From IMG/VR virus record IMGVR_UViG_3300027881_000017, positions 1-56,115 of that record: 56,115 nt of DNA. The stretch is one strand, 5' to 3'. The notes beneath the pieces were generated by a model. It saw only the letters and a list, made by a program, of their open reading frames with translations. It did not search any database and was not told the DNA's origin. The translations under genes and the position numbers were made by a program. Shown piece by piece: positions 21,254 to 30,214 of the stretch (position 1 is its first letter; each line of letters begins with the position of its first letter). This DNA comes from a virus. Lineage: Duplodnaviria; Caudoviricetes.

Positions 21254-21589
21254 TCAAAAAATATTTATTAACTTTTTTTGCTTTTTCTCAGACCATTTGG
21301 CTTTAAAGCCATCTCCCACAACATATCCGGTAATAAAGCCAAATTCTCTTAAGTCTTGAATATTGAATTTTTGGAGATCAGATGGTTCGTCCTTCCAGTT
21401 TCTTTTAATTTCAAGCCAGTACCTTGCGTTGCCGCCTTCATTAAAAGAAATTAAAACCATCAAGTCTGGCAAACCGGTTTCTTGGTATCGGCCACCGTGG
21501 ATTTTTATAAATCTGATTTTTGTGGATTTTAGAGGGAATCGTTCATGAACTATTTTTTTTATTAAACTAATATTCTTGTTTTGTAGCAT
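21254..21589 (-). CDS. VRR-NUC family nuclease
   Basis: KIHGGRYQETGLPDL...WLEIK...PSDLQ. Confidence 0.85.
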   Translation of the reverse strand: MLQNKNISLIKKIVHERFPLKSTKIRFIKIHGGRYQETGLPDLMVLISFNEGGNARYWLEIKRNWKDEPSDLQKFNIQDLREFGFITGYVVGDGFKAKWSEKKQKKLINIF

Positions 21590-22445
21590 TTTTTCTTATC
21601 CAATGTTTTTGGATTACCTCAAGTGCGTTATCTAAATATTCCGATTCGGTTAAAAAATTGATACGACTAAGCTGCTTTCCTGATCTTATTTGATTTTCAT
21701 AAAACCAAAATTCTTGTAGTTCCATCCCTGTTTTCTTGTAACTAAGATCCCATTTAAATTGAACATGATCATTAAATAATAGCCCCGCGTTTATTATCTT
21801 TTCTTTTTGCTCAATCATATCTGTATACAGATGCAAGCTGGTAACAACATGAGTATATATTCCGATCGGTATTTCAAGCCAACGAGCCATGACTTCTTGT
21901 ATAAATGTAAACTGGCTGATGTCATATGGAAATCCCCACATCGCATCGTTCGATCTCATGTATCCTACCATATCGAGTCCGTTTTCAGATACCTTAAAAT
22001 TTAAAGCGAGCGTGCAGGGGGTATTTTCTCGGTCGCCTCGATTGTCTTCAAGATAGTTATAAATATTTACCACCGCTTGCCTGGTTTGTGGATCCCGCTT
22101 TAAAAGGCTATATATATATGGAAGCTGCTGAGATATCCTGTAACCGTAGGATCCCGGGTCTATGAAGTTTGATTCTACAAATCTACTATAGTTTTTGTTA
22201 TATGACGTTATGATATTTGGGTAAAAGCCGACGCCGCTGATATATGATAATTTTTCAATAATATTAAACGCGTAATTAAGCCTTCGTTCTTTTAACGTTA
22301 TCAGTGAATCGGCGGGGTTAATCTCCACGACATATGGCGTGTCGGCTGCTTCGTAATAAATTAATCCTCTACTTGTTTTTTCTACGCTTGCTATTCCGAC
22401 GCAATCAGACAGCACCTTTAAATAAATTTGATTGATACTTTTCAT
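21567..22445 (-). CDS. Thymidylate-synthase-fold enzyme, probable dCMP hydroxymethylase
   Basis: TRQAV, catalytic TPCT, YMRSNDAMWGFPYD (Asp where ThyA has Asn), SLHLY. Confidence 0.8.
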   Translation of the reverse strand: MKSINQIYLKVLSDCVGIASVEKTSRGLIYYEAADTPYVVEINPADSLITLKERRLNYAFNIIEKLSYISGVGFYPNIITSYNKNYSRFVESNFIDPGSYGYRISQQLPYIYSLLKRDPQTRQAVVNIYNYLEDNRGDRENTPCTLALNFKVSENGLDMVGYMRSNDAMWGFPYDISQFTFIQEVMARWLEIPIGIYTHVVTSLHLYTDMIEQKEKIINAGLLFNDHVQFKWDLSYKKTGMELQEFWFYENQIRSGKQLSRINFLTESEYLDNALEVIQKHWIRKNATKQEY

Positions 22446-23358
22446 TTACTTTTTCCTTTATTAATTTTGCATATTCGAGAATTTTATCATGTTTAAATCT
22501 AAGATAGTATTGCGGATGCGGAATGAGTTCATGTCTTATATTACACCTTTTTAATAAGTCAGCTGCTTTTTTCCCAAGAGCAATTACAATGCCTGGTTTT
22601 ATAGCAGCATTTTCGTTGTGCACCATCTCTTTATTAACAAAATCGTTTGATGTTTTTATTGCGTTTGTAATATAAAAATCTTGTTGATTTAATTTGGTCA
22701 ATTCTAATACCTGGTGCAAATATGCGCTTGAGTTAGAGTGATATGCAAATGCTTGTTTTCTGCTCGTTCCAATATATGATCCATCTCCATATTGATTGCC
22801 CACAAGCATGATTTTACCTCCATAAATGTTTCCAGAACATTCATACGAGGACATAGCAGCACTCCTACGACATAAAGAATCATAAAATGATAAAACATAT
22901 TCGATGAACCTATTATTGTGGTAAAGTGGCATAGAGATCATCGGTAGAATTGTCTTTTGTATAGTAGTTTCAAATAATTTTATTTCTTGTTGTATTTGAT
23001 CTTTTTTTATAAAGTTTTCATTTAGTTCGTCATGTTTTTTTCTTAAAAAATCAATGTTCGCCGAACAACATAATAACAATGCTCCTTTTGCTAATAAAAT
23101 TCTTTCAATCAAATGTTGTTCCCATGTTTCAAACGGTTTCCGTCCAGGTTTCAAGTGTGGGTATACGCAGTTCCCAAGATGAAATCGATCAAGTACTGTT
23201 CGCAAGCTTCGTGTTAATGCTTTTTCTGCATAATATTTTAATGGTTCGATGTTTTGAGGAGGCGGCCCTTCATGGACATGGTGGTAGTTTAAAATCCTTG
23301 CTAATTTTTTTGCAAGAGTTGTTTTTCCTGAATTGTTTGGTCCTTCAATTATTATCAT
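22405..23358 (-). CDS. dNMP kinase fused to a uracil-DNA-glycosylase-like domain
   Basis: IIIEGPNNSGKTT and LDRFH (thymidylate-kinase-like); C-terminal IMLVG, YITNAIK, IVIALGKKA, HPQY (family-4 UDG fold motifs). Confidence 0.75.
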   Translation of the reverse strand: MIIIEGPNNSGKTTLAKKLARILNYHHVHEGPPPQNIEPLKYYAEKALTRSLRTVLDRFHLGNCVYPHLKPGRKPFETWEQHLIERILLAKGALLLCCSANIDFLRKKHDELNENFIKKDQIQQEIKLFETTIQKTILPMISMPLYHNNRFIEYVLSFYDSLCRRSAAMSSYECSGNIYGGKIMLVGNQYGDGSYIGTSRKQAFAYHSNSSAYLHQVLELTKLNQQDFYITNAIKTSNDFVNKEMVHNENAAIKPGIVIALGKKAADLLKRCNIRHELIPHPQYYLRFKHDKILEYAKLIKEKVNEKYQSNLFKGAV

Positions 23359-24470
23359 AAGGCCTCCTTTAATAAAAGTTCAATCTCGCTTAATTCTTTG
23401 TTGAGATCCAATGAACTTGATAGTTTTTCTTTAAGTTGTGGCATTATTTTATTTCTTGTTGTTAAGTTTTGCTTGATTTCGTTTGAGTCATTGACTAAAA
23501 GATATTTTTCTATATCATGTGATCCACCATAGCCTTCAAGAGAAAAATCGGAACTTTGAAAAAACATATTTTTATCAATAAAACAAGGAATGCCTGAAAA
23601 TATTGCATGATAGTGCCGTAAGCAATATGAGGATAGTTTCATATATCTTTCTTCATATATTTGTACTGTGAATGCGTATTTGTTTATAATATTTTGTTGA
23701 TTGTTAAACAATATGTAGTTTTTATATATAAAACTGTAATTTGGCCAAAACCTATTTCCGTAATGATCTATTCTTTTTTCAATTTTTTTCAACAATCTAT
23801 CAACAGAGTGATTTCTTCCTTCTCTAATGTTTCCTACATATACTCCTTTGTTTTCATAGTCTTTAATTATTTTCATATCTTTTAAATAGTAGCATTCAAA
23901 TCTGCATAAATCAACAAATCTAAATGTATATAATTTTTCTTTAGTTTGATAAAATGTCATCGTGTCGTTTTGCTTTTCACGATATTTTTTCACATGCGCT
24001 GCATTACACCAAATTATTATTTTTTTTATATTTTTAAATATTTCTTCTGGTTTGGTTTCTAATTTTTCTTTATAATGTTGTTTAGATTCCCAACCAAACA
24101 ATTTCTCTGCATTGTAAATTAGATATAAATCGGGATCATTTTGTGAATATATTATCGAACCGCTCCATCTTGAAATAACGTTGTATGCATCGATTATATA
24201 ATCACAAGATAATAAATTTGCCCATCTGCCGTTAATGATAAATAAAATATCGTATTTTTCGGGATCAAATTTCGACCAATGTTGATAACTTACATTTCTA
24301 ACAGTTGAAAACAAGTCATCGTTTTTCAAGTCTATCGGCGTAAAAAAAGTTATTTTGTGGTCTCTTTTTCCAAGTAATTTTAATAACGTTGTCTCTATTG
24401 TATACATTTTCTTACTATCAGAAAATATGAACAGTTTTCTTGGGCACACTACAGCTATTTTATATGGCAT
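23355..24470 (-). CDS. DNA glycosyltransferase, T4 beta-glucosyltransferase-like (GT-B)
   Basis: Collinear motif matches to T4 BGT as recalled: YDILFIIN, IIYSQNDPDL, VYVGNIREGR, IDHYGN, LRHYHAIFS...FID. Confidence 0.7.
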   Translation of the reverse strand: MPYKIAVVCPRKLFIFSDSKKMYTIETTLLKLLGKRDHKITFFTPIDLKNDDLFSTVRNVSYQHWSKFDPEKYDILFIINGRWANLLSCDYIIDAYNVISRWSGSIIYSQNDPDLYLIYNAEKLFGWESKQHYKEKLETKPEEIFKNIKKIIIWCNAAHVKKYREKQNDTMTFYQTKEKLYTFRFVDLCRFECYYLKDMKIIKDYENKGVYVGNIREGRNHSVDRLLKKIEKRIDHYGNRFWPNYSFIYKNYILFNNQQNIINKYAFTVQIYEERYMKLSSYCLRHYHAIFSGIPCFIDKNMFFQSSDFSLEGYGGSHDIEKYLLVNDSNEIKQNLTTRNKIMPQLKEKLSSSLDLNKELSEIELLLKEAL

Positions 24471-25563
24471 TTTTCCTCCAGTTTTTTGTATAGTCTGTTA
24501 CGTTTGGAATGTCATCAAAAAGAATGATTTCTTTATTTTGATTAATTAAAAAATCGTAACATTGCTCTGCTACGTAAGTTCCTACGTTTGCTGGGATTGC
24601 CTTTCCTACCTCAGCCATTTGTTTGTCAATGTTTATAGTTGGTGAAAATTTAAAGTTATCTGGCAATGACATCGCTCTTGCACGTTCACGTATACTAAGT
24701 TGACGATTTAATATAGGATGAATATATTTGTCAGCGGTTAGTATAACTGGGCAAGGTTTGTTATATCGCAATTTCGTGTCCGCATAAAATCCAAATATTT
24801 TTTTTCTTTTTTTCTCTATCCGCTTGTTTAAAAAGTAATCACTTAAATGCTGGTCTTCTAAGTCGTTTATACTTTCTCCTTGTTTTAAATGTTTCCACAT
24901 ATTTAACATAGATGTTTTTCTTATTTCTATCTCATGATTATATATAAATTTCTTTCCAACTTTTTGTTTAAATCCCTTGTTTACCGGAATTTTTTCAAGA
25001 TCAGAAATGATGTCTTGAAGCACCAATGCTTTTTGTTGTTTTGGAATATCAAATTTTATATAATCTTTTTTACTTGCTGCAAAAAAAACCCGTGGGCGAT
25101 TCTGTGCAACTCCATGATTAAGGGCATTAGTAAGAAATATATTTATTTTATAATCTGATAAAATATTTTTTGATATATCTAAAATTAATTCTTGGCCTTT
25201 TTTATATAAGCCTTGGACTGACTCAAGTACTATAATTTTCGCGTTTAGTTTTTTTCCTGTTTCACAAAGTTCGTATATATATTTATTCCATTTTGAATCT
25301 AATCCTCTGTCATACGTGTTGAGTATGCTAAATCCAAAGCAAGGCGGATTGCCATAACAAATATCGCATCCTTTATAATTGTTTACTGGCCATTTGTCAA
25401 CATAGACAGGTACGTTAGGAAAATTTAACTTAAACGTATCTACGCCAAAGTTTTTAAAGTCGGGATTTTCAAAGTGTGCAATAATATCAAAATATTTATT
25501 TATGCCTACAGAAAAATGACCAGAAAAAACTGAAATACCGACCGCTGTTGGTTTAGTATCCAT
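24460..25563 (-). CDS. Atypical DNA cytosine-C5 methyltransferase
   Basis: GNPPCFGFS (motif IV), ESV (VI, normally ENV), QNRPRVF (VIII), RQLSIRERAR (IX), GKAIP (X); motif I is degenerate (VFSGHFSVG). Confidence 0.8.
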   Translation of the reverse strand: MDTKPTAVGISVFSGHFSVGINKYFDIIAHFENPDFKNFGVDTFKLNFPNVPVYVDKWPVNNYKGCDICYGNPPCFGFSILNTYDRGLDSKWNKYIYELCETGKKLNAKIIVLESVQGLYKKGQELILDISKNILSDYKINIFLTNALNHGVAQNRPRVFFAASKKDYIKFDIPKQQKALVLQDIISDLEKIPVNKGFKQKVGKKFIYNHEIEIRKTSMLNMWKHLKQGESINDLEDQHLSDYFLNKRIEKKRKKIFGFYADTKLRYNKPCPVILTADKYIHPILNRQLSIRERARAMSLPDNFKFSPTINIDKQMAEVGKAIPANVGTYVAEQCYDFLINQNKEIILFDDIPNVTDYTKNWRKNAI

Positions 25564-25984
25564 CTTCTTGCCTTCTAATATTTTCTTTTAGTTTAACTAA
25601 GTAATAATCTTCTATCTCGTCGAACGGCATATTCCAAATAAACGCAAGGTTAAATATAAAGTGTAGTAAATCAATGATTTCAAATTTAATTTCTTCTGTT
25701 TCCAGTTTATGCTCAGTATAATTCTTCCAATGTTTCCATGGAAGCCAGCCCATTATCTCAGAACATTCGTCGTGAATTGCATGGATAATTTCTTTAGTTA
25801 CTCTTAATTTTTCACCTCCAACTAAATCATCTATAGATTTTCTATTTGAATTAATAATTCCTTTTCTGATCATCATCGGTATGATATGTTTATCAATATA
25901 TTTTTTATGTTCTTCAAATATCTCGATCATTGGAATATTGAGTGGTTTCTTCGGCGTCAAATGTTTCATTGTCTTTTTCTCCAT
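25553..25984 (-). CDS. All-alpha dimeric dUTPase/dCTPase
   Basis: ECSE...PWKHWK...EIIDLLHF...KLKENIRRQEDGY. Confidence 0.85.
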   Translation of the reverse strand: MEKKTMKHLTPKKPLNIPMIEIFEEHKKYIDKHIIPMMIRKGIINSNRKSIDDLVGGEKLRVTKEIIHAIHDECSEIMGWLPWKHWKNYTEHKLETEEIKFEIIDLLHFIFNLAFIWNMPFDEIEDYYLVKLKENIRRQEDGY

Positions 25985-26486
25985 AATTTCCCTCCATCCT
26001 GTCGATTAATGAATAAAACTCAGGACTACTGTTTTCAGGTTCTAATGTTAAATTTTTTATATCATCGATCTCTTTTTTTGTTAACTCCCAAATATCTTGC
26101 ATTATTTGAATTGGAAAATTCACCATATTTTTTCCGTTTTGCGTTTTAAGAATTTCAGCATATTTCATTAAAGCTGAAATTGGTTTACCATATGCTTTTT
26201 TATTCTTATAGTCAACGAATATTATCAGAATATCTTTAGGATATTTTATATAAATATTATAGATGTTTTCTGTAAATCCTATTTTTCCATTACTCATAGG
26301 TTCTTGAGTTTTAATTTGAACTAACGTAGTGTTTCCTGTTTCTTTGTTTATCAGTACGTAGTCTATCGGTGAATATCTTTGCTTTACTTCTGCTACGTCA
26401 TATCTACCGTCATGTAAAAAATGTTCTTCAAATAATTTTTCTCCTAAATTACCTTTTGCTTCTTTTCTTTTAGTTTCATCATTCAT
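25914..26486 (-). CDS. PD-(D/E)XK-family endonuclease
   Basis: GNLGEKLF...IDY...VQIKT restriction-endonuclease-like core. Confidence 0.6.
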   Translation of the reverse strand: MNDETKRKEAKGNLGEKLFEEHFLHDGRYDVAEVKQRYSPIDYVLINKETGNTTLVQIKTQEPMSNGKIGFTENIYNIYIKYPKDILIIFVDYKNKKAYGKPISALMKYAEILKTQNGKNMVNFPIQIMQDIWELTKKEIDDIKNLTLEPENSSPEFYSLIDRMEGNYGEKDNETFDAEETTQYSNDRDI

Positions 26487-27379: not shown

Positions 27380-30214
27380 TTAAAATGGCAATTCATCTTC
27401 TTCTTCCTCTAACCTTTCGTCAACTTTGTCAGCATCAAACAGTTCGCCGTTTTTATGTGTTCTTAAAAATTCAGAAAATGCTCTGGTCTTTTCATATCCG
27501 CCGCTAATCCGTTTTAATGCTTTGTTGATCAGTAATTTGTTTAATAGTTTTCTTGTATCTCCCCTGTTGCCCAGATCAAACATTTCTTGTAAATCTGTCT
27601 GGCTTATTTTTTCAATTTCTAATAGTTGATCTATTACATATCTCTTGTCAACAAGAAGTTCTTTTATCTCGTCTTCGTTTAATATTTTTTTACGCGTCTT
27701 TTCAAGCCGGCTATATTCATCGTATCCCATTACCGGTTTGTCGAATATCTTACATAGGTAATTGTAGGCAAATTCTACATGAATTTTATTTACAATAAGA
27801 TTTCTGCCGTCATGGCTAAATACCATCGCTGCTGTTGCTACCGCTATTTTTGCCAATCTTACCCTTTGTGAGTTTGGTATCATTAAAGGGATTGATTCAT
27901 CATATTTAAATGCCATCCATTTTGTGCACTGATATATGTGGTTCATCGCTTCTTGAGTAAATGTTATTTGCTCTTTTTTTAATGTCCAGGCAAACATAAT
28001 AAGATCTCGGAAATCGTCGCCGACATATTTAAATGTCTTAGGCGCTTTTATTGGCGTGTTAATTATATCCATTGACACGTCGTCTATGCCCAACAATAAA
28101 ACTAAATCGAATCTACTCATATCTTCTTTTTGACCAACCAGTTCTGGGAATGCTCTGACTCCCTGACTATAATCGCCGAGCATTTTATTATGTTCTTCTT
28201 TGGTTCCACGTGGATTACTTAACCATATGAGCCGAGTACGCGCCCATGTTTTTTCTGTCCTGATTTTTGTTATCTCTGCTCTACCGCTGGATCTAATGCC
28301 GGATAATTTCGCAATTTCCCATAGAGCCAGTCCGCTCATCTCATCAACAGCTACCAATCTTTTATCATTTAATGGAATACGCCCCCAGGTTAAGTGCCAT
28401 CGGCTGCCCATCTGTTGGAGCCCACCAACCAATCCGGCAAACGAGGCACTTTCACCAAGGACCAATTCTCCAAGTTTAAAATATTCTATTAATGATTTTA
28501 TCATTTCTGTTTTTCCGGTTCTTGTATCGCCAAGCACAAGGCTTTCAAGATATCCTTTATCTAATTGCTTGTCTTCAAAACTCCACACCAATGGGCTACA
28601 ATATGTCAAAAGCGTTAATGTAAATAAATCTTCACGACCTTTTAATCCAGTAACGTGCATGACAGTACTTTCGTATATATCCTGGATTTTTTCTTCAATA
28701 TTATCTGTTTGAAATTTTTCTAATTTTTTTACAGTTTCATCGGTAAATTCGTAACTGTCGATTGCGGTCATGCTCGGCTTAGCGTTAAATATTAAATGTG
28801 TTCCTTTTTGTGTCTTTGGATGGGCGATGGTTTTTGCTTCCATGTCATATGATCTATTTGCTTCAATGTTGTGGCCAATATAATACGATCTTCTGGTTTT
28901 AAATTGTTCGTCCTGATTTATGTCAGTCGTGTATTCTATCTCCGTTGTAAGCACAACCTCTTCGATATTAAAACTTTTCTTTTCTTCGATATTAACTATA
29001 TTACATCTTTGTGGTATACCAAGTATTTCTTTCAGCCCGGTTGTTTTTTCTTTTTTAGTTACGTCGCACAACAACAGTATATTTTCATCGCTTTTTTCAA
29101 TTACTGCTTTAATGTCGCCACTGTCAAAATTCATCGGACATACCGGACATGCTTTTTCACTATAATTTATGCTGCAAGTTGCGTGTATTTTTTGTGGTAC
29201 AATATATGCCTCAATGTCTTTGCCTGAAATAAGCGCGCTTGTTCTTATAAATTTATTATTATATTTTCCATGATCTGCTTGTGCTAATGATACTTCGAAA
29301 AACTTATCTTCATCTTCGTCCTTCAAAATATACAGCGGCATGCTTTTTAATAATTTTATTAAATCTTTTTTTTGCGCACCATTTATAATATAATCTGTCA
29401 AGTCTCCACCAGGATATTGCTCAATATCAAGTGGTAAGTTTATTATTTTTATAGCGTCGGCGAATTTACTTAGTAGTTTTGCGACTCTTTGGCTGCCGGC
29501 CTTACCTGCTTCGTCTATGTCATAGCAAATCATGACCTTCTTGCCACTGAAATATTTTGCCCATTCCGCCGGAAAAGTGCTTACCCCGGTTGTACCTGTA
29601 ATTGCGTTATAGCCCAACTGGTTCGCCAGAATACAATCCATTTCTCCTTCACAAAGCATAACCGTATTTTTGTATAAGTTTTCTGCTGGAAATAATCTTG
29701 CAGCACCATACCCACTTTTCCAGCTTGCGACCTTTGGCTTTCCTTTCTCTGGTCTTGGATCGTGAATTCTGATATTTACTATTTCGCCATATATATCATA
29801 TATTGGGATTGTAAATTTTTGATTAAACGCCCCAATTTTATACTTTTTTACTGTTTCTATTTCTAACCCTCTTTTGCGCTTTAACCAATTAATAGCTGTT
29901 TCGTTTTTAATTAGTTCTTGATGCATTGTATCTATTTCTGATTTATCAATTTTTTTCTGTTCTGTTTTAATGTTGTTTTCAGCAGCAATCTGCTTTAAGT
30001 CTAAATTTTGCTTTTTACACCATGTAAGAAAATTACCCTTTTCGTTGCAAGTGTGGCAATAATACATGCCCGTCGCGGCGTTGATGCTCATGCTGGCATG
30101 CTCGTCTTCGTGGAACGGGCAATTTATGATTATTTGGTTTGGACCAGTACTCTTTCCACGCGGGTAAAAATCAATAAAGTGTATTTTTGAAAGAAGCTCA
30201 TCGACCCAGTTCAT
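27380..30214 (-). CDS. Primase-helicase fusion: CHC2 zinc finger, TOPRIM and MCM-type AAA+ helicase
   Basis: CPFHED...CHTC; CEGEMD, YDID, DLTD; GDTRTGKT, SFAGLVGG, VDEM, SNP, SRFDL. Confidence 0.88.
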   Translation of the reverse strand: MNWVDELLSKIHFIDFYPRGKSTGPNQIIINCPFHEDEHASMSINAATGMYYCHTCNEKGNFLTWCKKQNLDLKQIAAENNIKTEQKKIDKSEIDTMHQELIKNETAINWLKRKRGLEIETVKKYKIGAFNQKFTIPIYDIYGEIVNIRIHDPRPEKGKPKVASWKSGYGAARLFPAENLYKNTVMLCEGEMDCILANQLGYNAITGTTGVSTFPAEWAKYFSGKKVMICYDIDEAGKAGSQRVAKLLSKFADAIKIINLPLDIEQYPGGDLTDYIINGAQKKDLIKLLKSMPLYILKDEDEDKFFEVSLAQADHGKYNNKFIRTSALISGKDIEAYIVPQKIHATCSINYSEKACPVCPMNFDSGDIKAVIEKSDENILLLCDVTKKEKTTGLKEILGIPQRCNIVNIEEKKSFNIEEVVLTTEIEYTTDINQDEQFKTRRSYYIGHNIEANRSYDMEAKTIAHPKTQKGTHLIFNAKPSMTAIDSYEFTDETVKKLEKFQTDNIEEKIQDIYESTVMHVTGLKGREDLFTLTLLTYCSPLVWSFEDKQLDKGYLESLVLGDTRTGKTEMIKSLIEYFKLGELVLGESASFAGLVGGLQQMGSRWHLTWGRIPLNDKRLVAVDEMSGLALWEIAKLSGIRSSGRAEITKIRTEKTWARTRLIWLSNPRGTKEEHNKMLGDYSQGVRAFPELVGQKEDMSRFDLVLLLGIDDVSMDIINTPIKAPKTFKYVGDDFRDLIMFAWTLKKEQITFTQEAMNHIYQCTKWMAFKYDESIPLMIPNSQRVRLAKIAVATAAMVFSHDGRNLIVNKIHVEFAYNYLCKIFDKPVMGYDEYSRLEKTRKKILNEDEIKELLVDKRYVIDQLLEIEKISQTDLQEMFDLGNRGDTRKLLNKLLINKALKRISGGYEKTRAFSEFLRTHKNGELFDADKVDERLEEEEDELPF

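Follow-up and report, generated by a model that had tools for sequence, protein, structure and literature searches.

A phage C5-methyltransferase-fold protein with a rebuilt cofactor pocket, linked to putative hydroxymethylcytosine genes and possibly acting on modified cytosine

C5-cytosine methyltransferases are among the best-understood DNA enzymes. In M.HhaI, the transferred group lies between residues Q82 and N304, which limit its size; shrinking both admits bulky analogues of S-adenosylmethionine (SAM), and the Q82A change is reported to lower methylation (PMC10666283). A natural DNA cytosine C5-carboxymethyltransferase, CmoX, has been described from Synechococcus phage S-B43 (SpCmoX, PDB 8YF3; PMC12783734). 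According to that report, R350 of SpCmoX, which corresponds to HhaI N304, binds the carboxymethyl group of carboxy-SAM (Cx-SAM) supplied by a phage CmoA, an arrangement that mirrors the engineered M.MpeI N374K; the hallmark of CmoX is the SPPC motif (S95-P96-P97-C98) together with R350, mostly in company of CmoA (4257 CmoA genes per 5615 CmoX contigs), and CmoA from E. coli is enough for SpCmoX in vivo (PMC12783734). Similarly, M.MedI N377K is given as an efficient carboxymethyltransferase that retains methylation with SAM (PMC12015181). That M.MpeI N374 is the same position as HhaI N304 and SpCmoX R350 follows the statements of these papers (PMC12783734, PMC10666283), and we verified the SpCmoX numbering on the S-B43 record. 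In this study, we analyzed a viral gene for a protein of this fold, hereafter named methyltransferase-like (MT-like). It is carried by the 56,115-bp IMG/VR record IMGVR_UViG_3300027881_000017 (hereafter the window), which is a complete virus record with direct terminal repeats.

The MT-like protein matched the Pfam family PF00145 (DNA_methylase) with an E value of 8.2e-32 and 111.3 bits, for a cut-off of 22. The alignment begins only at position 22 of the 324-position profile, so that the motif I region is left unmatched. Against the NCBIfam dcm profile (TIGR00675) the score was 84.6 bits, under the cut-off of 100.65. Motif states were then read from residue-by-residue alignments to M.HaeIII and M.HhaI. 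A sequence-only reading of the window had described an intact catalytic PC, intact motifs VIII and IX, and three deviations, namely VFSGHFSVG in motif I, ESV for ENV, and GKA for GNA/GNS; the alignments agree with it on all of these points. The catalytic motif is GNPPC-F, compared with PPC-Q in M.HaeIII and PC-Q in M.HhaI. Motif VI reads lESv in place of aENv and mENv, respectively, and motif X vGKAip in place of iGNAvp and fGNSvv. Motif VIII (QNRPR) and motif IX (RERARAMSLPD) are both intact, and the motif II Glu (E32) is present. A fourth deviation, which the earlier reading had not mentioned, is the replacement by Phe of the Gln that follows the catalytic Cys (HhaI Q82).

An AlphaFold2 (AF2) model computed with 71 relatives was confident (pLDDT 91.5, pTM 0.91), the single-sequence model being unusable (pLDDT 31.5). 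Its top Foldseek matches were MET1, M.HaeIII and DNMT1, with M.HhaI and the CmoX structure 8YF3 also found; for 3ubt/1dct the Foldseek E value was about 1e-19 and the TM-score 0.73 by target. On this model the product is a C5-cytosine methyltransferase fold, as had been proposed. 8YF3 matched the MT-like protein both by sequence (E 3e-8) and by fold (Foldseek rank 29), and the two proteins can be compared position by position: K321 corresponds to R350, E32 to E47, D56 to D69, S11 to F25 and N33 to F48. Among the adenosine contacts of SpCmoX, E47 and D69 are thus kept in the window protein, while the adenine-stacking F25 and F48 are replaced by Ser and Asn. The D69 position is Asp in only 24/71 sequences of the family alignment described below. 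At the position of SpCmoX S95, the window protein and 69/71 relatives have Asn, giving NPPC.

A HMMER scan of 1.84 billion representative proteins returned 4061 matches at E≤1e-3 and 7 at E≤1e-30, the closest relative being 39% identical. We built a tree from 147 sequences, consisting of the window protein, SpCmoX, a Nostoc phage methylase and 144 matches shorter than 650 aa. In this set, 119 sequences share an E-S/C/M-V/T motif VI without Gln after the Cys, and they form a single clade; outside it are 23 sequences with the canonical ENV and 5 others that make up a small ENA/ENS group. SpCmoX clusters with the canonical enzymes. Of the 112 ESV sequences, 55 have Lys at the position of HhaI N304, 32 Arg, 19 Gln, 4 Asn and 1 Ala, and 1 has a gap. 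A second alignment of 71 sequences comprised the window protein and 70 family-like relatives hand-picked from 150 listed, leaving out for instance P0016, P0022-24, P0026 and P0030. Cys75, Glu114, Val116, Arg156, Arg158, His282, Arg287 and Glu293 are invariant in it, and Ser115 is found in 67/71. Position 76 is mainly Ala (50) or Ser (15), Phe once, and never Gln; position 321 is Lys (33), Arg (25), Gln (12) or Ala (1). The family motif I is [HY]-I-F-A-G-G-F-T-L-G, with two invariant glycines. Judged from these alignments, the altered motifs are family traits and not noise. Some states are peculiar to the window protein or a small subclade, such as His16 (Gly in 57/71), Phe76 (1/71) and Ser11 (His or Tyr in the family), so that by its sequence the window protein is extreme even inside its own family.

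This family looks like a large, virus-restricted and uncharacterised clade of the C5-methyltransferase fold. Compared to 50,697 phage records, a typical member gave 1 weak match; the window protein's own matches there were all below 60% identity, and the one examined, from Nostoc phage N1, is canonical. A narrow pattern (NPPCAPWS) retrieved 1 relative from 185,579 species genomes. A word-index homologue search gave only 8 distant relatives, and a single-protein scan of viral contigs with the MT-like protein gave none. Such near absence from cellular genomes and cultured phages differs from ordinary methylase lineages. The source names of the relatives are generic and automatic ("site-specific DNA-cytosine methylase", "Dcm ... 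uncultured Caudovirales phage"), and no description of a C5-methylase clade linked to thymidylate synthase (TS) homologues was found in the literature searched, subscription journals and supplements being outside that search.

To examine the genomic context of the family, we searched IMG/VR by pattern, using the alignment of the family; 156 relatives were found among 163 pattern matches, and 80 loci were kept. The open reading frames (ORFs) of these loci were clustered, and cluster representatives were annotated. As a control, 79 equally long loci around canonical C5-methylases were obtained the same way. Using a hidden Markov model of TS homologues, we detected a TS-like gene within about 8 kb in 62/80 family loci, versus 1/79 control loci. 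Grouping the MT-like proteins at 50% identity gave 25 groups, of which 20 had a TS-like gene in the locus and 23 in whole records, the remaining 2 being fragments. When 10 records lacking a TS-like gene in the locus were searched whole, PF00303 was found elsewhere in 7, among them each of the 4 records with a completeness of 90% or more; the three without it anywhere are 11-48% complete. By cluster annotation, the 80 loci contain a TS homologue (61), a P-loop kinase (50), a deoxycytidine monophosphate (dCMP) deaminase (40), a MazG-like PRA-PH NTPase (38), an NAD-dependent epimerase/dehydratase (18), a dUTPase_2 (16), a UDP-glucose dehydrogenase (14), an NAD-synthase-like protein (10), and a class I methyltransferase located immediately upstream of the MT-like gene (10), besides replication genes. 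The homologues do therefore track with modification loci, and the outcome by which the sequence-only reading would have been refuted, homologues unlinked to such loci, is clearly not the one observed: besides the TS-like genes, glucosyltransferase-like and other DNA-modification genes are adjacent or fused to the MT-like gene.

We next considered which reaction the TS homologues might catalyze. The best PDB match of the one in the window is the CMP 5-hydroxymethylase MilA (5b6d, E 9e-23). The diagnostic positions given in PMC13326640 are N177D for a dCMP substrate, L143D/E for a hydroxymethyl product and D169N for 5-hydroxy-dCMP synthase. In E. coli numbering, N177 is replaced by Asp in 59/62 TS-like genes and L143 by Asp in 58/62, and D169 is kept in 61/62; an assignment as 5-hydroxy-dCMP synthase was rejected on this last count, D169N being absent. 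The window homologue has Asp at the N177 position, keeps D169, and has Asn at the L143 position. It is probably a dCMP hydroxymethylase, although because of this Asn its product, hydroxymethyl or other, is less certain than in the relatives. In addition, a set comprising TS, PRA-PH and dCMP deaminase was linked by MetaGPA to cytosine-modified contigs (PMC8670742). From the dCMP/hydroxymethyl signature, these phages should build DNA containing 5-hydroxymethylcytosine (hmC), with few C5-H cytosines. The puzzle raised at the outset, that a standard C5-methylase would have little to do on hydroxymethylated DNA, is upheld by these genes. In one locus, the TS homologue (L034:10839-12389) is interrupted immediately behind its catalytic Cys by an insertion some 270 aa long, with flanks ...C/LAGST and HN/C; by sequence it looks like an intein.

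The genes contiguous with the MT-like gene, or fused to it, were examined more closely. In the window, the MT-like ORF shares 11-nt overlaps with both of its neighbours. The downstream one, ORF371, has no Pfam, PHROG or NCBIfam match and 1 homologue in 5.8e9 proteins. Its nearest ESM-Atlas clusters are those of T4 beta-glucosyltransferase (PF09198; feature score 0.97, model TM-score 0.75), and we take it as a supported lead, from these predicted structures, that ORF371 is a T4 beta-glucosyltransferase-like DNA glycosyltransferase. The MT-like gene had been placed between a dNTPase and a DNA glycosyltransferase: the first of these is indeed found upstream, as a dUTPase_2/NTP pyrophosphohydrolase, while the second is a lead from ESM-Atlas with no profile match. 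In a Pam3-like lineage, the gene order is MT-like, MazG, a protein of about 348 aa hereafter named X, kinase and TS. In 31 loci X neighbours the MT-like gene, and in two, L056 and L057, both form one fused protein with X on the C-terminal side of the MT-like domain (hmmsearch 3e-59 and 3e-71). By ESM features X is nearest to T4 (beta-)glucosyltransferase clusters (0.95); it has no Pfam match, its profile found no match among PDB sequences, and its alignment with ORF371 by hhalign was not significant. In P0163, P0165 and P0178, a class I methyltransferase domain is fused C-terminally to the MT-like domain, and the same domain is found as a separate upstream gene elsewhere (e.g. L071:7330-7998). 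Its best PDB matches are small-molecule and sugar methyltransferases. It was considered as a possible CmoA, and was not recognisable as such, giving weak generic matches that include CmoB (29 bits) and the sugar C-methyltransferase TcaB9.

Taken together, the near-obligate linkage to dCMP hydroxymethylase genes, the fusions to DNA-modification enzymes, and the invariant catalytic residues next to a replaced methyl-transfer pocket suggest that the job of the enzyme depends on hmC. The interpretation we prefer, tentatively and at somewhat less than an even chance, is that the MT-like enzyme acts on hmC in phage DNA through Cys-C6 chemistry, and does not carry out ordinary cytosine methylation. 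The enzyme would flip a 5-substituted cytosine out of the phage DNA, and Cys75 would add to C6 with the help of Glu114 and Arg156/Arg158, as in every C5-methylase. With C5 already bearing CH2-O-X (where X might be H, phosphate or a sugar), the adduct could expel the leaving group and form an exocyclic 5-methylene. Either a nucleophile would capture this methylene or the adduct would revert, so that the hydroxymethyl group would be converted or edited alongside the glucosyltransferase-like neighbour. No longer steering a methyl group, the residues changed from Gln82 to a small residue or Phe, from Asn120 to Ser, and from Asn304 to Lys, Arg or Gln (HhaI numbering) would then shape a pocket that accommodates the 5-substituent together with its leaving group or the nucleophile. 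The fold, the motif states, the clade and its genomic linkages are observed; what we infer in this scheme is the chemistry, with its substrate, leaving group, nucleophile and product. Such chemistry is plausible by analogy. Ordinary C5-methylases are reported to derivatise 5hmC with thiols, and to form covalent complexes with 5hmC DNA (PMC7176277, PMC11347137). In thymidine hypermodification, as described in PMC8989533, a Cys attacks C6 of phosphorylated 5-hydroxymethyldeoxyuridine (5-hmdU), phosphate is lost, and the exocyclic methylene is captured by Gly or Ser. A more specific proposal, which we consider rather doubtful, is that abundant uncultured phages, here marine, have put the C5-methyltransferase fold to use as a "5-hydroxymethylcytosine methylene transferase", doing for cytosine what the amino-acid:DNA transferases do in thymidine hypermodification: once the Cys has added to C6, the hydroxyl of hmC, whether free, phosphorylated or glycosylated, would leave, and a new substituent would take its place.

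Several observations weigh against an action on hmC. The ribose-binding Glu of motif II (E32) is found in 69/71 sequences and two motif I glycines are invariant, which suggests that a nucleoside cofactor is still bound. By alignment, Lys or Arg at the N304 position with a small residue after the Cys is exactly the signature of CmoX and of the engineered carboxymethyltransferases. As the Asn to Lys variant of M.MedI still methylates with SAM, the pocket changes need not abolish methyl transfer. The argument also assumes that hmC fully takes the place of C in these phages. One Pam3-like phage lineage supplies about half of the 80 family loci, so that raw locus counts overstate their independence. 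The glucosyltransferase assignments of ORF371 and X come from language-model and predicted-structure similarity only. Finally, no HMUDK-like kinase was found in the window, though the control genomes gave no match either.

The core of the sequence-only reading, that this is not a routine methylase and that it belongs to a cytosine-modification locus, is supported by the linkage and the fusions. It had offered three alternatives, namely protection of residual cytosines, use of a different cofactor, or Cys-C6 chemistry for another reaction at C5 or on hmC, and sequence does not decide among them. The different cofactor has gained a published precedent in CmoX (PMC12783734), but the features that define CmoX are not those found here (NPPC and no CmoA, with, at the Arg350 position, a Lys that is basic, as in the engineered N374K, but not Arg). 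In its CmoX-like form, which we regard as unlikely, the enzyme would transfer a larger polar group from a SAM analogue onto unmodified C5, for example the carboxymethyl group of Cx-SAM made by a host CmoA, with Lys321 binding the carboxylate. Lys321 does align with SpCmoX Arg350 and HhaI Asn304, a position with precedents in Arg350 itself and engineered M.MpeI N374K (PMC12783734) and in the efficient M.MedI N377K (PMC12015181); the size-limiting Q82 and N304 of HhaI (PMC10666283) are both changed family-wide; a host CmoA might serve, as the E. coli one did for SpCmoX in vivo (PMC12783734); and amidoligases of the NAD-synthase-like type are present in 10/80 loci. Nevertheless, CmoA (TIGR00740) had no match in the complete 56-kb genome and no relative of SpCmoA or SpCmoY was found in the 80 loci, whereas CmoX contigs mostly carry CmoA (PMC12783734), and the adjacent class I methyltransferase has no CmoA match. 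The family has NPPC and not SPPC, ESV and not ENV, and another motif I, with SpCmoX falling in the canonical group; within the ES(V) clade of 119, Gln takes the key position in 19 sequences and Asn in 4. The bulky Phe76 and His16 of the window protein would narrow the pocket and not widen it, and the near-obligate linkage to dCMP hydroxymethylase would be left without a reason.

This linkage also bears on the possibility, in our view improbable, of an ordinary SAM-dependent m5C methylase from a divergent lineage, which would cap cytosines escaping hydroxymethylation or have another sequence-specific protective or regulatory role, its motif changes being drift. The complete fold with all catalytic residues, the conserved motif II Glu, the methylation activity of Asn to Lys variants (PMC12015181) and the "site-specific DNA-cytosine methylase" names of the relatives, automatic as they are, are what such an enzyme would give. 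However, a deep clade has consistent changes at four positions of the cofactor pocket, a pattern that resembles selection and not drift, and one such change in M.HhaI, Q82A, lowers methylation (PMC10666283). Moreover, canonical viral C5-methylases lie beside a TS homologue in only 1/79 loci, cellular genomes and cultured phages contain almost no member of the clade, and there are fusions of clade members with a class I methyltransferase and with a glucosyltransferase-like domain. These fusions point to a shared substrate in phage DNA, and argue in the same way against a weapon directed at cytosine-containing host DNA, which would trap, deaminate or mark ordinary cytosine and be safe only for hmC phages. 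C5-methylases deaminate cytosine when SAM is lacking, and a weapon of this kind would explain the dependence on the hmC pathway; the uracil-DNA glycosylase (UDG) superfamily domain fused to the neighbouring kinase might process its products. That domain scores far under the curated family cut-offs, and we hold this last explanation to be very unlikely.

The features of the window and the fusions found in related loci are listed in Table 1. The MT-like gene belongs to a block of genes for replication and nucleotide metabolism on the minus strand. Its upstream neighbour, the all-alpha NTP pyrophosphohydrolase, is by its sequence a candidate dCTPase/dUTPase. This ORF and the one at 25914-26486, also on the minus strand, overlap by 71 nt, and the Pfam match of the NTPase covers it only from residue 56 onward; translation might in fact begin at a later ATG.

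Table 1. Features of the window and of related loci
Feature	Position	Strand	Basis and remarks
Primase/MCM-like helicase	27380-30214	-	
All-alpha NTP pyrophosphohydrolase (dUTPase_2 / MazG-like)	25553..25984	-	Pfam PF08761 9e-11; PHROG 173 "NTP pyrophosphohydrolase"
C5-methyltransferase-fold (methylase-like, MT-like) gene, 367 aa	24460..25563	-	ORF, Pfam PF00145, AF2, Foldseek, clade placement
Remodelled motif I, residues 12-20, VFSGHFSVG	25504..25530	-	Family consensus I-F-A-G-G-F-T-L-G; canonical FxGxGG
Catalytic Cys75 (TGC) and Phe76 (TTT)	25336..25341	-	Phe at the canonical Gln (HhaI Q82) position
Glu114-Ser115, motif VI	25219..25224	-	ESV replaces ENV
Lys321 (AAG), motif X Asn position	24601..24603	-	Corresponds to HhaI N304 and SpCmoX R350
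ORF371, 371-aa T4 beta-glucosyltransferase-like candidate	23355..24470	-	ESM-Atlas score and model TM-score
P-loop dNMP/thymidylate-kinase-like (N-terminal) and UDG-superfamily (C-terminal) fusion	22405..23358	-	Pfam Thymidylate_kin 4e-7 (residues 4-36); UDG 5e-10 (residues 180-295)
TS homologue, dCMP type	21567..22445	-	Pfam PF00303
MT-like + X fusion, L056	7974-10457		
MT-like + X fusion, L057	7995-10607		
Free-standing X, e.g. L043	9483-10529		

The kinase-UDG fusion of the window recurs in related loci, 8 of the 12 best tblastn rows spanning both domains. With a family-4-like UDG part, it is found in L003, L005, L013, L027, L034, L037, L054 and L062, and always adjoins a dCMP-type TS homologue. 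Because of its low scores, the UDG part may be a base-flipping or base-binding module instead of a uracil glycosylase. Another kinase-like cluster lies directly upstream of the MT-like gene in three loci (L003:7432-8001, L005:7215-7814, L037:7237-7998). Its L005 member matches the Pfam family HMUDK_HMUD1, "5-hmdU DNA kinase" (37.6 bits for a cut-off of 27), next to a myo-inositol-1-phosphate synthase homologue, and L003:3239-4312 was noted with this group. Found in phages with a dCMP-type TS, these genes may point to a kinase for hmC DNA and to a modification that contains inositol; the characterised 5-HMUDK is described as not phosphorylating hmC (PMC6457204). The upstream neighbour of the MT-like gene in L067 has a weak resemblance to T4 alpha-glucosyltransferase. 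A search of the window for Tet_JBP was negative, as it was in the control genomes. A UDP-glucose dehydrogenase and an NAD-synthase-like amidoligase are found side by side downstream of the polymerase in L028 (15537-16313 and neighbours), and the same pair is present in L043, L047, L060, L061, L065, L066, L068, L079 and L081, which suggests, from these annotations, an amidated uronic-acid sugar donor for DNA glycosylation. The 8736-bp record L064, which has inverted terminal repeats, carries the MT-like gene with its neighbours in two copies inverted relative to each other; this may reflect the terminal repeats or an error of assembly.

As for the origin of the window, seawater metagenomes contain near-identical pieces of it. 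Part or all of it is present in three seawater DNA runs, one of which may be its source, and short pieces from two seawater runs show zero differences with it. Among the runs listed, there was no RNA run containing a stretch of the window, and a blastn search with 8 kb of it gave no match in the 50,697 phage records.

A deep, virus-only clade in which the covalent residues are kept, the cofactor pocket is rebuilt and the genes are tied to hmC synthesis would indicate a new post-replicative reaction on modified cytosine or, alternatively, a second natural route to non-methyl C5 groups. Unknown DNA modifications would then be expected in widespread uncultured phages, which bears on phage defence and counter-defence. 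Should the fold indeed act as a methylene transferase, these phages would contain undescribed hypermodified cytosines, with inositol or sugar perhaps attached in some lineages, and SAM would no longer be needed as a methyl donor. MT-like enzymes could also serve the labelling and sequencing of 5hmC, for which engineered methylases are now used.

We finally compared the MT-like family with the systems described so far. With canonical C5-methylases (M.HaeIII, M.HhaI; PF00145) it has in common the fold, the PC Cys, the motif VI Glu, QxRxR, the motif IX RE and the motif II Glu. It differs from them by its rebuilt motif I glycine loop, the loss of the Gln after the Cys, ESV and, in the window protein, the motif X Lys; it is also virus-only and tied to dCMP hydroxymethylase genes, and the window protein falls under the NCBIfam dcm cut-off. 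CmoX, like the MT-like protein, is a phage-encoded C5-methylase fold without Gln after the Cys and with a basic residue at the N304 position (R350 and K321, respectively), but its FAGGGG motif I, ENV, SPPC, Arg and aromatic F25/F48 are absent from the MT-like protein, and it adjoins CmoA and the ligase CmoY, whereas the MT-like gene adjoins genes of the hmC pathway. The engineered M.MpeI N374K and M.MedI N377K have the same Asn to Lys change, which enables the use of carboxy-SAM; they are single-residue variants of CpG methylases, whereas the MT-like enzyme is natural and has at least three further pocket differences. The amino-acid:DNA transferases of thymidine hypermodification (aGPT-Pplase clade 2) resemble the proposed mechanism in the attack of an active-site Cys, with a Glu, on C6. 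However, their fold is helix-hairpin-helix glycosylase-like, and the MT-like protein, of C5-methyltransferase fold, is not a member of that clade, so that the analogy is mechanistic only; moreover, they act on a uracil base, and the MT-like proposal concerns cytosine. The T4-type hmC system (dCMP hydroxymethylase gp42, dCTPase gp56, dNMP kinase gp1 and the alpha/beta-glucosyltransferases) has a matching set here, made of the dCMP/hydroxymethyl-type TS, the kinase, the NTP pyrophosphohydrolase and the beta-glucosyltransferase-like protein. To our knowledge, T4 has no gene of C5-methylase fold in its hmC pathway, and it is this extra enzyme that makes the novelty of the present locus relative to the T4-type system.

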